From contig CAZTKG010000003.1 in assembly GCA_964613815.1 (NCBI GenBank), forward strand, positions 125,440-189,439: DNA of 64,000 nt, written 5' to 3'. Numbering within the stretch: the stretch's first letter is position 1; every line of letters starts with the position of its first letter. This document shows positions 12,153 through 16,733 of this stretch, in pieces. The translations under genes were made by a program, and so were the position numbers. The notes under the pieces were generated by a model, which was not told the DNA's origin, made no database searches, and saw nothing but the letters and a program-made list of their open reading frames with translations. This stretch comes from an uncultured Gammaproteobacteria bacterium (GTDB lineage Bacteria; Patescibacteriota; Patescibacteriia; UBA9934).

Positions 12153-12827
12153 ATGATTTTGACTCGTGATGCTATTTTGGCGCGGATTCGGAAGGGGGAG
12201 CTTGTTTTTACTCCGGGGGTTGATCGGTTTCAGTTGCAGCCGCATGCGATCGATTTGCGGCTTGGGTATCGGTTTTTGATTCCGAAGAATTGGTCGGTGA
12301 CGGAGAGGGGGAGAGAGGCGATTCAGATATCGATAGAAGAGGAGTCTCGGCATCGGGAGCAGTTTGAAGAGGTTGTTTTGGAGCCTGGGCAGTATTTTGA
12401 CTTGTTGCCGAATGAGTTTGTGATTGCGACGAGTTTAGAGCATCTGGAGCTGAATGCGCCGGATTTGATGGCGCTTTTGTTTCCTCGGACGAGTACGAAT
12501 CGGCGGGGGATTAATCTTTCGCTCTCGGGGATTATTGATACGGGGTATCATGGGAATTTGATTTTTCCGATGAAGAATGAGGCTGGGGATCAGGTTTTGC
12601 GGCTTTATCCTGGGGAGCGGATTTGTCAGGTTATTTTTGAGACACTCGATGCGCCGCTCAGTAAAGCGGCTGCACAGATGCACGGGATGAGTCCTGCGAA
12701 GTATTCTCATGCGGCAGATTCCGCCTATCGAGTTGATAAGTCTGAAGAGCGAGAACGGCTTGTGGCGGGGGATTTGGAGGGGTTAAAATCAGCCTTTGGG
12801 GTCGATTTGGACGAGGACTCGGCCTAG
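12153..12827 (+). CDS. dcd: dCTP deaminase (dCTP deaminase/dUTPase family)
   Basis: Dcd/dUTPase fold motifs (GxIDxGYxG-like IIDTGYHGNL). Confidence 0.8.
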   Translation: MILTRDAILARIRKGELVFTPGVDRFQLQPHAIDLRLGYRFLIPKNWSVTERGREAIQISIEEESRHREQFEEVVLEPGQYFDLLPNEFVIATSLEHLELNAPDLMALLFPRTSTNRRGINLSLSGIIDTGYHGNLIFPMKNEAGDQVLRLYPGERICQVIFETLDAPLSKAAAQMHGMSPAKYSHAADSAYRVDKSEERERLVAGDLEGLKSAFGVDLDEDSA

Positions 12828-13712
12828 GTGGTCTAGAGCTTCTTCGGGGGAGTTGTATTCGATGTGGTAGATGACTCCAGGGTTTCCTCGGACGAATCTT
12901 GATAGTTTTGTGCCTTTTTTAGACATGAGCACGATCTGCTTGTTGTTTTTTTCTGCGAGGACGATTTCGCCACCGGCGCCTAGCGATGGGTAGGTGACTT
13001 CGGCGATTGTCATGTCTCGATTTGAGGCGTTTTCGAATCCGATGTTGTAGATTTCTTCTGGCGTAAGATCTTTTGCGACCTCTGGATCTGTATGCTGGTG
13101 GGGGACGTAGGCGTTGATCCCGAAGGATTCGCAGACACTTCCGATCGCTTCTAGGTAGCTTAGGAAGTCCTGACGGTCTTGTTGCGGGATGTTTGTGAGA
13201 GCGCTTGCGATGTAGGCGGTTTTTATTTTAACGCCAAGGACTTCGCCGTAGACTTTTTCTCGGGTGAATTCTTCTTTTGCGCCTTTGAGGAGGTAGACGT
13301 CTTTGACGCCGGCGTCTATTAAGACGTCCCAGCAGTATTTGCAGCACCACCAGTGGCCGTAGAGGTAGAGGTCTGATCCTTGGGTGTCGCGCCCTAATGA
13401 TTTTGCCACGTTGACGACGGTGCACTCTGCGTGTCCTGGAGGGTCGTGGACGGCGCAGAGGTCGTAGCCTTGGCCTGTGGGCGCGTCGTGGACGTAGCGC
13501 TTGCAGATGATTCTGGCACTTCGCCCCTTATTGAATCCGTTTCCAGCGCATGCGATTTCTACAGAATCTTTCACTAAACAGGCGCCGATTGGATAGAGCC
13601 GATCGCCGGACAAGTGATGACGCGCGAGCTTAGCCCGCTGCATGAATTTATTGTCTAGTGTCGTAAAACGAATTTCTTTGCCATCGGGAAGGTAAGGGTA
13701 CTCAATTTTCAT
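12789..13712 (-). CDS. dCMP (deoxycytidylate) deaminase fused to a C-terminal Rossmann-like domain of uncertain function (nucleoside 2-deoxyribosyltransferase / DNPH1-like)
   Basis: N-terminal GACLVKD...HAEC...CCKYC zinc-deaminase motifs (CDA fold). The extra ~140 aa is a C-terminal alpha/beta domain (KTAYIASALT...). Confidence 0.7.
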   Translation of the reverse strand: MKIEYPYLPDGKEIRFTTLDNKFMQRAKLARHHLSGDRLYPIGACLVKDSVEIACAGNGFNKGRSARIICKRYVHDAPTGQGYDLCAVHDPPGHAECTVVNVAKSLGRDTQGSDLYLYGHWWCCKYCWDVLIDAGVKDVYLLKGAKEEFTREKVYGEVLGVKIKTAYIASALTNIPQQDRQDFLSYLEAIGSVCESFGINAYVPHQHTDPEVAKDLTPEEIYNIGFENASNRDMTIAEVTYPSLGAGGEIVLAEKNNKQIVLMSKKGTKLSRFVRGNPGVIYHIEYNSPEEALDHLGRVLVQIDPKG

Positions 13713-14211
13713 AGGGTTTGAGATGAAGCAGTGCCGCTTCTCCCCCTAGCGATTCTTGCGAGATTAGGTCTAGTTTTACTGGATTAATACCGTCTGCGAG
13801 CCCCACTCCCCTGCCGAAGAGGATGGGCTCTATGGTGAGAAAATAGTCGGTGATGAGGCCTGCGTCGATGAATTGTTTGTAAATTTGGCCTCCGCCGGCG
13901 ATGACGCATGACTCGAATCCTCTGCCCTTTAGGCTGGAGATGATGTCTTCTGGTGTGACTGATGTATATTCTAGCTCGCCATGAATGGATTCGTAGCGCT
14001 CTGGACTACGGGTCATGACGATATTTAGACGGCCTGGCAGCGGCCTTCCGATGGTTTCGTAGGTTGTGCGGCCCATGATGAGGACGCCAGCCTCTTTGGT
14101 CTTCTTTACGAAAAAACGCTTGTCAGATTTACTGGTCCAATCTGCAAGCTGGTCGGATTCTTCGGCGATTTTTCCGTCGAGGGTGATCGCGGCGAGAAGC
14201 CAAGTGTTCAT
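13702..14211 (-). CDS. folA: dihydrofolate reductase (DHFR/RibD C-terminal family)
   Basis: DHFR-fold motifs (LDGKIA, IMGRTTYE, AGGGQIY). Overlaps the ThyA-like gene, arranged as in thyA-folA. Confidence 0.75.
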   Translation of the reverse strand: MNTWLLAAITLDGKIAEESDQLADWTSKSDKRFFVKKTKEAGVLIMGRTTYETIGRPLPGRLNIVMTRSPERYESIHGELEYTSVTPEDIISSLKGRGFESCVIAGGGQIYKQFIDAGLITDYFLTIEPILFGRGVGLADGINPVKLDLISQESLGGEAALLHLKPYEN

Positions 14212-15056
14212 ACGGAGATTTTCATTTTTTTGAGCGACTTCATGGGCTTGTACTGGTCTTTCAGCGATTGCGCGATCTCTTTGACGAGACTCACGTCTTC
14301 TGCGAGCGCGCGTTCGAAAGACCTTTCCGGGAGACGAAGCTTGATCTCCTGATGGCGATGCGGCATACGGCTGATGAGGGTTTTGGCTTGGTCGTAGTGA
14401 TTTCCGTAGACATGTGCGTGCGAGATGGAAACGGTGTACTTCCCCACCCCGGCCCGGAGCTCCTGCGCAAGCATGGATTGCAGGAGCGCGAAACCGGCCA
14501 CGTCGTGGGGATTTCCGAGCATCATGTCATTTGATCTGAGAACGAGATGGAGATTTAGTTTTCCGCCGATGATGTTTGCTGTGAACGTAAATGGACATGG
14601 GACATTCTTCTTTTTGGGTGCGGTGAGGCCGTCTGAGGCCGGGTCCCACATCATCACCACTCCCTGGCGGGATGTTGGCTCTGTTTTGAGGTGGTTGACG
14701 AGGTCCATGAGCTGGTCGCGGCCGAAATGATGTCGCCAACGGTAGCCATAAGCGGTCTGCATGGTGTTGTCCTCCTCTGCGAAATCGTCCCAGATCTTGG
14801 TGAATTGTTGAACGAATGAAAGATCTTTTTGGCCCGTGATCATCCAAACCACTTCTGAGACAAATAGGCCTATTGGGATTCTTCTGAGAGTTAGGAGTGG
14901 GAATCCATCTCCTGGACTTAGCTCCATTGTCCTTCCTGGAAGTGCAGTGATGTTGATCTTGGTTCGCTCGTGAAAAAACTCGTCGCCATTGATCATAATG
15001 GCGGCGATCATATCCCTGTATTGCTGATCGTACTTTGTCATAACGGTTTTTTTCAC
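14208..15056 (-). CDS. thymidylate synthase-fold enzyme carrying a dCMP-type specificity signature (ThyA / dCMP hydroxymethylase / dCMP methylase family)
   Basis: Ungapped alignment to E. coli ThyA over the PC(H)...GKL..L.(Q)RS.D..LG.P(F)N..A..ALL block. The catalytic Cys, R166, S167, D169, H207 and Y209 equivalents are present. The Asn177 equivalent is Asp (GNPHD) and PCH is PCP. Confidence 0.8.
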   Translation of the reverse strand: MKKTVMTKYDQQYRDMIAAIMINGDEFFHERTKINITALPGRTMELSPGDGFPLLTLRRIPIGLFVSEVVWMITGQKDLSFVQQFTKIWDDFAEEDNTMQTAYGYRWRHHFGRDQLMDLVNHLKTEPTSRQGVVMMWDPASDGLTAPKKKNVPCPFTFTANIIGGKLNLHLVLRSNDMMLGNPHDVAGFALLQSMLAQELRAGVGKYTVSISHAHVYGNHYDQAKTLISRMPHRHQEIKLRLPERSFERALAEDVSLVKEIAQSLKDQYKPMKSLKKMKISV

Positions 15057-15120
15057 CCTAGCAAATCAACCTTTTGCTGCAATGATGGATTGTGGACAGA
15101 TCGAAATGCGGGTCTATTTT

Positions 15121-15129
15121 TGGTATAAT
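15121..15129 (+). promoter_or_regulatory. extended -10 element TGGTATAAT upstream of tmk
   Basis: TGnTATAAT consensus 10 nt upstream of the adjusted start. Confidence 0.4.
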
Positions 15130-15138
15130 GTGAGCGCT

Positions 15139-15936
15139 ATGAACGATCGATCGCGTTTTGTTGTTGTGGAGGGGATAACTGGAAGTGGAAAATCTACCTG
15201 CCTTCGTGCGATTCACGCGTATTTGGTTGATCAAGGCCTTCGTGTTTTTGATGCCCAAGCCTTTGCTGAGGAGTCGCACGATCCGCCGCATTTTGATAGC
15301 CATGGCGATTTTGATGTCTACTTTACGTTTGAGCCAACGAAATGGTGGGTTGGGCATGCGATTCGGAAGGAGATGTCGTTTGGTGATACGTACTCTGGAC
15401 TTGAGCAGGCGCATGCGTTTTCTCTTGATCGACTTATTCAGTACAGACGATTTATCTTGCCAGCGCTTCGAGCTGGAAAGACCGTGATTCAAGATCGGTG
15501 CGTGTCCTCCTCCCTCTTGTATCAGCCGATCATTGCCGGAGGTCCACATCAAGATGCTGTTGCCGCCCTCCCTGGGAATGCGCTTGCGCTCAAGCATGCG
15601 CCGGGGCATCTCATTGTTCTTGATCTGGATGCGAAGAAGGCTTGCGAGAGGCTGCAGGGGCGATTTGATGAATCTAAGGGCGTATTTGAGCAACTGGAGC
15701 TTTTACAGAATATTGATAAACGCATTCGCTCTGACTGGTTTCGTGACTTATTTACTTCGCGCGGCACGACAATTCATGCGCTTGATGCGGATGGTACGCC
15801 CGATATTGTTGCGCAGCGATCTATTGAACTTATCCAATCCATTATTCCCGACCTATGCCCGCAAAAAAACTCATCTCCGTTGGACAGCTCATTGACGAGA
15901 CGTGGGACCACTACCGTGCAAAGTTCCCAGACTTAA
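15139..15936 (+). CDS. tmk: thymidylate (dNMP) kinase family protein
   Basis: P-loop VVVEGITGSGKST and a DRCVSSSLLYQ (DRYxxSxxAYQ) motif. The start was moved to MNDRS. The 3' end overlaps the next ORF by ~80 nt. Confidence 0.7.
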   Translation: MNDRSRFVVVEGITGSGKSTCLRAIHAYLVDQGLRVFDAQAFAEESHDPPHFDSHGDFDVYFTFEPTKWWVGHAIRKEMSFGDTYSGLEQAHAFSLDRLIQYRRFILPALRAGKTVIQDRCVSSSLLYQPIIAGGPHQDAVAALPGNALALKHAPGHLIVLDLDAKKACERLQGRFDESKGVFEQLELLQNIDKRIRSDWFRDLFTSRGTTIHALDADGTPDIVAQRSIELIQSIIPDLCPQKNSSPLDSSLTRRGTTTVQSSQT

Positions 15937-16733
15937 CACGCGTATCTCTTTGGCTCTTCTTGGGCGCGCTCCTTTGGACGATTGGCGTCATTATTGCTCC
16001 CGTTGGAGACCCGATGGATATTCTGTTTACAGGAACTCAATCGCTTTCTGATATTCTTGGAAGTGCCTGGCTTATTGTGGTGAGCGCCATTATTCAACCA
16101 CTTATCTTTGTTTGGGTGGTGCTTGCGATGATTCTCTTGATTGAGCGACAATTTCTCCGTAAGAAAATTGGTAATCCCGCGAAGGATGCGACAAAGCTGT
16201 TCTTGCCCTATGTCTGGATCAGCCTTTTGAAAACAGCTATTACCTTCCTCCCCTTTCTCCTTATTGCTCCAGGGATTGTAATCCTGTTGACCGAGGCACT
16301 GGGTGGAGATGCTCCGTTTTTGGAGGGAATTGGTTCAATTCTGTTGTTAGCTGGCATCGTTGCTACAATTTGCTTGGTTTTTGCGTTCTTGGTCCGCTTT
16401 GCTTTTGTGGGATACGAACTTACGCTCCATGATCACCGTGGTCTCAAGGCCCTGAAGGCCTCCAATGCCCTTGTGAAGGGGCGATTCTGGTCTGTATTTT
16501 GGCGATATATTGCTCCGCGAATGGTGTTTGGCGCTGCGGCGGTCGTGATTCAACTCGCGCTTTACTTTGTGCTCATCGTCTCTCTGGCTGCCATTCCTGC
16601 GACAGGACCTGCCATGTTCAAGATCTCTAGCGTGCTCTTGCAGATTAATGATGTTCTTGTTCTCGTTCTTCTACTTCCAATTCTAACCATTGCTGACTAC
16701 AAATTATTCGACAGTCTTCGTAAGACCAAATAA
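15855..16733 (+). CDS. hypothetical polytopic membrane protein (tandem paralog 1)
   Basis: 6-7 TM helices and a shared KGRFWSVFWRY motif with the next gene. Confidence 0.5.
   Translation: MPAKKLISVGQLIDETWDHYRAKFPDLTRVSLWLFLGALLWTIGVIIAPVGDPMDILFTGTQSLSDILGSAWLIVVSAIIQPLIFVWVVLAMILLIERQFLRKKIGNPAKDATKLFLPYVWISLLKTAITFLPFLLIAPGIVILLTEALGGDAPFLEGIGSILLLAGIVATICLVFAFLVRFAFVGYELTLHDHRGLKALKASNALVKGRFWSVFWRYIAPRMVFGAAAVVIQLALYFVLIVSLAAIPATGPAMFKISSVLLQINDVLVLVLLLPILTIADYKLFDSLRKTK

Follow-up and report, generated by a model that had tools for sequence, protein, structure and literature searches.

We questioned what the C-terminal half of a two-domain protein encoded within a bacterial thymidylate gene cluster contributes to that cluster. 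The protein is the product of an open reading frame (ORF) at 12789..13712 on the minus strand of a 64-kb stretch of DNA from contig CAZTKG010000003.1 (hereafter, the window). It starts with ATG and joins an N-terminal domain of the deoxycytidylate (dCMP) deaminase family to a C-terminal DNPH1-like domain in a single 307-amino acid chain, an assignment based on the ORF, Pfam, homologues, and an AlphaFold2 (AF2) model. The original prediction, made from the letters of the window, had described this gene as a dCMP deaminase with an extra C-terminal domain; the ORF proved to be exact, and the ~300-aa architecture recurs in ~28 database proteins, 36 genome loci, and 13 metagenome loci. A frameshift or gene-calling artefact as the origin of the fusion was ruled out by its recurrence in more than 50 independent contigs. 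We are highly confident in the identities assigned to both domains, deaminase and DNPH1-like. The best overall explanation for the locus, to which we give slightly less than an even chance, is an operon that would make thymidylate (dTMP) by methylating first and deaminating afterwards, with the DNPH1-like domain acting in clean-up.

The N-terminal domain (residues 1-161; 13230..13712, minus strand) was delimited using PF00383, a profile search of the Protein Data Bank (PDB), and a hidden Markov model (HMM) of the N-domain (residues 2-161). The zinc deaminase motifs that the original prediction had read from the translation are present, namely GACLVKD at residues 43-49, HAEC at 94-97, and CCKYC at 123-127, and Pfam dCMP_cyt_deam_1 (PF00383) matches residues 19-141 (E 7.8e-10, 39 bits, cut-off 25). 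His94-Ala-Glu96 (13425..13433, minus strand) would supply a zinc ligand and the catalytic Glu, while Cys124-x-x-Cys127 (13332..13343, minus strand), which is preceded by GHWW, would supply the remaining zinc ligands; His94, Glu96, Cys124, and Cys127 are invariant across 29 homologues. When the profile was compared with the PDB, the Streptococcus mutans dCMP deaminase 2hvv was found first (1.4e-9), followed by the enzymes of cyanophage S-TIM5 (4p9c), human (DCTD, 2w4l), and T4 (1vq2). By its motifs, this is thus a dCMP-deaminase-family zinc domain that has remained intact, and it shares the HAE and CxxC zinc motifs with bacterial ComEB, T4 Cd, and S. mutans dCMP deaminases, its nearest solved relatives. 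In contrast with these enzymes, it carries 'GHWW' in place of 'FP' before the CxxC, such that the usual Pro of P-C-x-x-C is replaced (GHWWCCKYC), and the ComEB equivalog TIGR02571 is not reached (26.8 bits vs. a cut-off of 219.45). We refer to this group as the 'GHWW(A/C)C' clade. Cys70, Cys86, and His120 are additionally invariant in the clade and may, together with 'GHWW', provide a second metal site or reshape the substrate pocket for a 5-substituted cytosine.

The C-terminal part had been proposed to form a separate alpha/beta domain and, tentatively, to adopt a fold of the nucleoside 2-deoxyribosyltransferase (NDT) or DNPH1 type, and both proposals held. Profile and Foldseek searches place a DNPH1/MilB-type domain of the NDT superfamily at residues 166-303 (12804..13217, minus strand), and the AF2 model of the fusion protein has a mean predicted local distance difference test (pLDDT) score of 91 and a predicted template modelling (pTM) score of 0.83. 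The suggested comparison with Pfam gave a divided answer, in that the C-domain alone scored 15.3-17.6 bits against Nuc_deoxyrib_tr (PF05014), under the cut-off of 28.8, whereas 26 of 26 C-domain homologues matched this family (best 1.6e-9). Likewise, the single sequence reached human DNPH1 at only E 0.004, but a profile of the 26 homologous C-domains reached DNPH1 at E 2.6e-9 (40.8 bits), with BcmB at 6e-7, BlsM at 1e-4, and MilB at 1e-3. The closest relatives by profile are therefore the (d)NMP (deoxy- or ribonucleoside monophosphate) N-glycosidases DNPH1, MilB, BcmB, and BlsM. Structure prediction led to the same group, since a Foldseek search of the PDB with the C-domain placed MilB, DNPH1, and BcmB on top (E ~5e-7 to 1e-6, target template modelling (TM) score 0.77-0.84). 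Nucleoside deoxyribosyltransferases proper scored far lower (E 0.0025-0.9, target TM ~0.6), and we rejected them as the identity of the domain because both their profile and structure scores were weaker than those of DNPH1, MilB, and BcmB. The outcome that would have spoken against the proposal, an unrelated family or a plain oligomerisation tail, did not occur and was ruled out by these same profile and fold matches.

The domain and human or rat DNPH1 (Rcl, the 5-hydroxymethyl-dUMP N-hydrolase; dUMP is deoxyuridylate) have in common the Rossmann-like fold of the NDT superfamily (target TM in Foldseek as high as 0.80), the 'D..AEVT.PSLG.G.E' strand-helix that bears the Glu nucleophile, the Tyr, both phosphate serines, and the 'LS..RG' helical extension. 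The domain differs in its ~25% identity, in being joined to a deaminase, and in several active-site positions. In DNPH1, Glu104 is the nucleophile, Tyr24 and Asp80 belong to the triad with Asp80 as the acid, Glu55 activates water, His56 and Arg30 act on the leaving group, and the phosphate is bound by Ser98 and the partner-subunit Ser128' (PMC10603095, PMC12751057). We counted conservation at the corresponding positions over 152 family representatives; all codons given here are on the minus strand. On the sugar-phosphate side, Tyr167 (13212..13214) corresponds to Tyr24 and is Tyr in 131/152, Ser243 of the PSLG motif (12984..12986) corresponds to Ser98 and is Ser in 144/152, Glu249 (12966..12968) corresponds to Glu104 and is found in 148/152 and invariantly in fusions, and Ser271 of LSRFVRG (12900..12902) corresponds to Ser128' and is Ser in 137 and Thr in 7 of the 152. 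The two phosphate ligands separate nucleotide hydrolases from nucleoside transferases, and Ser243 and Ser271 provide both in the fusion protein.

The base side of the pocket is different. His205 of a Pro-His motif (13098..13100; His in 135/152) lies in a short helix after strand 2, opposite Glu55/His56 of DNPH1, and its equivalence is positional. Pro204 (Pro in 145/152) lies at or beside the Glu55 position and was placed by its location in this post-beta2 helix (residues 204-207 of the AF2 model) rather than by alignment, the HMMER alignment of the Pro204-His205 segment being unreliable. Thr173 occupies the position of Arg30 within the family motif 'YISGALTN'. Finally, Gly225 (13038..13040) takes the place of the general acid Asp80, where Asp is found in 122/152. 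This Asp is kept in just 17 of the 42 fusions from genome loci, and the full Tyr/His/Asp/Ser/Glu/Ser set is present in 14/38 unique fusions compared to 91/152 family representatives. Judging from the conservation counts of Tyr/Ser/Glu/Ser vs. His/Asp, the fused Uhrbacteria copies, the window's included, have strictly kept the sugar-phosphate half of the predicted pocket and relaxed its base/acid half. Since Gly225 stands at the Asp80 position, the glycosidase in this copy may be slow or already inactive, and its catalytic competence is doubtful.

The fusion gene is the third, translationally coupled gene of an operon on the minus strand. The operon's first gene (14208..15056, profile and alignment) encodes a ThyA homologue with Asp at the position of Escherichia coli Asn177; it is followed by folA (13702..14211, ORF and profile match), which encodes a 169-aa dihydrofolate reductase (DHFR). 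folA overlaps the thyA stop by 4 nt, and the start of the fusion gene overlaps the folA stop by 11 nt. A Dcd-like gene (12153..12827, plus strand, profile and alignment) is convergent with the fusion gene, and the dTMP kinase gene tmk (15082..15936, plus strand, profile match) is divergent from thyA. The 3' ends of the fusion and Dcd-like genes overlap by 39 nt in the window (12789..12827) and by only 4 nt in locus L001.

Asn177 is an established determinant of dUMP vs. dCMP specificity in thymidylate synthase, and the N177D or N229D exchange reportedly turns the enzyme into a dCMP methylase, a result attributed to Liu and Santi and to Hardy and Nalivaika, both in 1992. We surveyed whether Asp at this position accompanies the fusion, as the original prediction had suggested. 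ThyA-Asp was found in 36/36 fusion loci, and equally in 36/36 loci whose deaminase lacks the extra domain (72/72 in all), as well as in 7 further metagenome loci. The co-occurrence therefore stands, but its specificity for the fusion is ruled out: ThyA-Asp tracks the deaminase clade. With Asp in 72/72 loci, the putative dCMP-methylating ThyA appears to be the sole thymidylate-synthase-like gene of these clusters. The window's ThyA homologue also carries His147->Pro, Arg127->Gln, and Trp83->Phe. folA lies immediately downstream of thyA in 56/67 loci; its coupling to thyA implies that dihydrofolate is produced, and thus that the reaction is a reductive methylation and not a hydroxymethylation.

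Where E. coli Dcd carries Glu138, the Dcd-like protein has Pro in 66/67 cluster copies and Ser in the other one; it retains the dUTPase-type Asp and the triphosphate-binding Ser/Arg. Glu138 is required for deamination by E. coli Dcd. Because this residue is replaced while the Asp and Ser/Arg ligands are kept, the Dcd-like protein probably acts as a pyrophosphatase on dCTP/dUTP rather than deaminating dCTP.

These neighbours suggest a route in which dTMP is made in the order dCTP -> dCMP -> 5-methyl-dCMP -> dTMP, a proposal that we consider somewhat better than evenly supported. The Dcd-like protein, lacking the deamination Glu, would free dCMP from dCTP; ThyA-Asp would methylate dCMP to 5-methyl-dCMP, yielding dihydrofolate for DHFR to recycle; the deaminase domain would turn the 5-methyl-dC nucleotide into a thymidine nucleotide; and Tmk would take this onward. 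Deamination would thus be shifted from the first to the last step of the pathway. The original prediction had seen the fusion as fitting a modified-pyrimidine pathway with ThyA-Asp; its modified intermediate survives here, but the cluster looks like a housekeeping dTMP route and not one for DNA hypermodification. A set of genes complementary to this one is found in locus L085 (5162-6923), where a stand-alone DNPH1-like gene lies between a canonical Asn177 thyA and folA, overlapping both, and where a NUDIX gene and a long Dcd that contains the Glu were also found and a dCMP deaminase was not. At the same chromosomal position as the window's cluster, L085 represents its 'classical' counterpart.

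Phages offer the closest precedent. Phage homologues of the Asp177-type ThyA have been shown experimentally to make 5-methyl-dCMP, and co-located phage enzymes of the dCMP-deaminase family generate thymidine nucleotides (10.1101/2024.12.05.627091). The Xp12-type pair of ThyA(Asp177) and mSCD-B5 resembles the window's operon in setting an Asp177 ThyA beside a dCMP-deaminase-family gene, with conversion of 5-methyl-dC to thymidine nucleotides proposed (10.1101/2024.12.05.627091). In contrast with the operon, the phage system is viral, serves genomes containing 5-methylcytosine (5mC), acts on triphosphates, and is without a DNPH1-like domain and without synteny with folA, tmk, and ribosomal genes. 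In the literature searched, neither the fusion nor a ThyA-Asp dTMP route in cells or in the Candidate Phyla Radiation (CPR) was described, and the phage precedent alone turned up. The fusion therefore looks like a novel joining of known kinds of enzyme inside an apparently undescribed cellular thymidylate pathway.

What, then, would the DNPH1-like domain add to this operon? It would bind a pyrimidine 2'-deoxynucleoside 5'-monophosphate in the manner of DNPH1 and would cut aberrant deaminated or 5-substituted pyrimidine deoxynucleoside monophosphates (dNMPs), such as 5-hydroxymethyl-dUMP and possibly dUMP, into base and deoxyribose 5-phosphate; these aberrant dNMPs would come from side reactions of the ThyA-fold enzyme, from deamination, or from scavenged nucleotides. 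We put forward this clean-up N-glycosidase role tentatively, as a possibility that falls well short of even odds. It is compatible with Asp-type and canonical ThyA clusters alike. The occurrence of the fusion in either order, with DHFR or a Dcd-like domain, or as adjacent genes is a Rosetta-stone pattern that implies functional coupling.

Several observations weigh against the clean-up reading and the pathway around it. In the window copy no counterpart of Asp80 is present; family-wide, Glu55 and Arg30 are represented by Pro204 and Thr173, and only a minority of the unique fusions retain the full catalytic set. The catalytic core has been lost from roughly 30 Uhrbacteria lineages, in which a relic of 42-105 aa is all that is left of the domain, and many other CPR lineages have a bare deaminase in the same cluster. 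Functions have been read from sequence and model for all members of the fusion family, and the source of 5-hydroxymethyl-dUMP in these cells is hypothetical. Moreover, mSCD-B5, the one phage deaminase studied in depth, uses the triphosphate and not the monophosphate (10.1101/2024.12.05.627091), which would weaken the idea that one domain simply hands a monophosphate over to the other.

The distribution of the domain bears directly on these points. In a genome scan of 80 loci, whose ORFs were scanned with purpose-built HMMs, the deaminase clade occurred in three states: as the full ~300-aa fusion in 36 loci; as a deaminase with a 42-105 aa tail in ~30 loci, all Uhrbacteria-like (L035-L066, e.g. 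L057 7992-8711 and L041 3633-4256); and, in other CPR phyla, as a bare deaminase of 155-190 aa with a tail of at most 25 aa. The fusion thus occurs in at least 36 CPR genome loci, each within a thyA-folA-deaminase cluster. What remains in the short tails is strand 1, helix 1, and the terminal 'VY.IE...NVLRQL' helix, with the entire catalytic core deleted, and by this pattern of retained segments they are eroded relics of the DNPH1-like domain; the several distinct relic lengths point to repeated erosion. Relics and bare deaminases together indicate that the DNPH1-like function is dispensable, which suits an accessory sanitising function and equally a regulatory or structural role.

To place the domain in a wider family, we searched 1.84 billion representatives with the C-domain profile and obtained 2965 relatives, of which 64 reached E <= 1e-30. 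Among the 149 closest, 98 are stand-alone proteins (~140-160 aa), 40 have other extensions, and 10 are fused to a deaminase. Among these 10 are a fusion in reversed order, DNPH1-like followed by deaminase (P0063, 293 aa), and a triple fusion of DHFR, deaminase, and DNPH1-like domains (P0049, 481 aa). A further architecture is a fusion of DNPH1-like and Dcd-like domains (P0127, 401 aa). A putative single ORF of Dcd-like, deaminase, and DNPH1-like parts was also found (L070 897-2531, 544 aa), with a frameshift not excluded. Stand-alone genes occupy the same clusters not only in L085 but also in L087, where one directly follows a canonical Asn177 thyA in a folA-deaminase-dcd-thyA operon, and in L088, where one lies between a deaminase and a Dcd-like gene; the DNPH1-like module is therefore a mobile accessory part of CPR thymidylate gene clusters. 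Since the stand-alone copies in L085 and L087 adjoin an Asn177 ThyA, the domain is tied to thymidylate clusters generally and not to the Asp variant. The metagenome scan used a pattern specific for the Uhrbacteria fusion and returned 14 loci, nearly all fusions, such that stand-alone contexts were not sampled systematically. Two stand-alone members (L094 1957-2490 and L095 2322-2855) lie on phage-like contigs of many small unannotated ORFs.

The rival that survives best holds that the C-domain is no longer an enzyme and instead acts as a nucleotide-binding allosteric or structural module, which would sense a dNMP such as dTMP or aid oligomerisation; we rate it as unlikely, if only a little less probable than the clean-up role. 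Gly225 in the place of the general acid favors it, as does the relaxation of the base-side positions 205, 209, and 225 in fusions that strictly keep the sugar-phosphate ligands. The strand and helices retained by the relics suggest packing on the deaminase, and the pTM of the AF2 model would imply a fixed arrangement of the two domains. However, Glu249 is invariant even in copies that have lost the Asp, the full catalytic set persists in most of the wider, mainly stand-alone family (the 91/152 given above), and the C-domain is still under purifying selection, with a mean pairwise identity of 45% compared to 54% for the N-domain.

A further rival, in which the C-domain is a sink specifically for dUMP, appears improbable to us. 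In clusters where ThyA-Asp would be unable to use dUMP, any dUMP arising from Dut, the Dcd-like protein, or the deamination of dCMP as an off-target reaction would have no onward use, and both the ThyA-Asp context of all 72 loci and the presence of Dut in 33 related loci are consistent with such a need. Human DNPH1 also hydrolyses dUMP, although slowly (PMC10483697). Stand-alone copies nevertheless occur in L085 and L087, in clusters with a dUMP-consuming Asn177 ThyA, and half of the ThyA-Asp loci are missing the domain.

Could the domain instead transfer deoxyribose 5-phosphate? Acting as a dNMP:base 2-deoxyribose-5-phosphate transferase, it would exchange the bases of scavenged dNMPs and so feed ThyA with dCMP or dUMP. 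The water-activating Glu55 of DNPH1 is matched by Pro204, the Asp80 position is variable, the founders of the superfamily are transferases that work via the same covalent Glu intermediate, and CPR bacteria rely on salvage. On the other hand, the characterised phosphate-binding members (DNPH1, MilB, BcmB, and BlsM) are all hydrolases, and the proposal is purely inferred, with no acceptor-base site identified. We therefore regard a transferase as very unlikely.

Least probable of all, by a small step, is that the cluster's product is not dTMP but a modified pyrimidine, either as the free base or in DNA, as with the 5mC of phage Xp12: the pairing of a ThyA-like enzyme with an NDT-fold glycosidase follows the logic of MilA/MilB and BcmA/BcmB, and an Asp177 ThyA with a deaminase is known from phages with 5mC genomes, but the translational coupling of folA and thyA implies dihydrofolate and so methylation, the chromosomal synteny of the cluster with tmk, dut, rplK, rplA, nusG, and gatB is conserved, the cluster takes the place of the canonical thyA-folA pair of L085, and the fusion is without a PADLOC or PHROG match. 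MilB, BcmB, and BlsM, the CMP and hydroxymethyl-CMP N-glycosidases of nucleoside-antibiotic pathways, do include the top structural matches (4jel, E 4.9e-7; 4jen, target TM 0.83), and MilB and BcmB likewise have a ThyA-fold partner (MilA and BcmA). Unlike the role proposed here, these enzymes release the free base from ribonucleotides for secondary metabolism, and the hydroxymethylases MilA and BcmA need no DHFR, in contrast with the folA-coupled ThyA of the fusion operon. Biosynthetic-cluster genes were not found around the fusion, its neighbours in related loci being folA, tmk, and dut in housekeeping synteny. Neither the fusion protein nor one stand-alone member matched PADLOC or PHROGs, and on this account we no longer considered a defence system or a typical phage family.

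Returning to the methylate-then-deaminate operon with a clean-up domain, a parallel has been established experimentally in human cells, where DCTD and then DNPH1 act in the sanitation of hydroxymethyl-dC nucleotides, that is, the same two families acting on pyrimidine dNMPs (PMC10603095, PMC10305735). The human proteins are separate and unlinked to thymidylate synthase genes, whereas the bacterial deaminase belongs to the divergent 'GHWW' clade tied to ThyA-Asp. That bacteria have fused the two families repeatedly and independently argues strongly, on evolutionary grounds, for an ancient and functional DCTD/DNPH1-family pairing, and the bacterial fusions offer small soluble models of it. The link between DCTD and DNPH1 in human cells came to light only in 2021, and work on it now aims at sensitisation to PARP inhibitors. 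If the domain does act in clean-up, the fusion would be the counterpart in bacteria of this human route, joined in one chain.

The cluster also suggests that many CPR bacteria make dTMP via 5-methyl-dCMP rather than dUMP, a route so far proposed, in the literature searched, only for 5mC phages. If so, reconstructions of thymidylate synthesis in the CPR would change, since current annotation treats the genes concerned as those of an ordinary ThyA, Dcd, and dCMP deaminase, and the cluster would furnish new tools in the form of 5mC-selective deaminases and dNMP glycosidases. The broader idea, that many CPR (Patescibacteria) lineages make thymidylate without dUMP and carry the DNPH1-like module as a built-in proofreading glycosidase against 5-hydroxymethyl and uracil dNMPs, we offer as speculative, with the balance tipped against it; were it true, the module would be an ancestor-analogue, bacterial and fused, of the DCTD-DNPH1 axis in humans, which has become a target for cancer drugs.

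In the window, the operon is surrounded by gyrB, secE, nusG, rplK, rplA, and gatB, which places it on a cellular chromosome. Homologous loci are almost all from Candidatus Uhrbacteria or other CPR bacteria, and the host is a CPR bacterium of the Uhrbacteria type with a tiny genome. The title "uncultured Gammaproteobacteria bacterium" is borne by many genome records with this typical CPR locus (L006, L009, L011, L014, L019, L020, and others); such records are probably mislabelled metagenome-assembled genomes of Patescibacteria. A homologue of the dUTPase gene dut was not detected anywhere in the window, whereas dut lies within 8 kb of the deaminase in 33 related loci, usually between tmk and thyA. 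The longest tmk ORF in the window encodes 284 aa, with an N-terminus ~45 aa longer than those of most homologues (~237 aa), and the true start may lie downstream; at the 3' end, this ORF and the next one (15855..16733) share 82 nt. No Rfam family was found in the window besides three tRNA genes (Ser-TGA, Arg-GCG, and Ser-GCT, at 56.3-57.4 kb). GC skew is positive in all 2-kb bins of the window, and the cumulative skew climbs monotonically, indicating that the window lies within one replichore.

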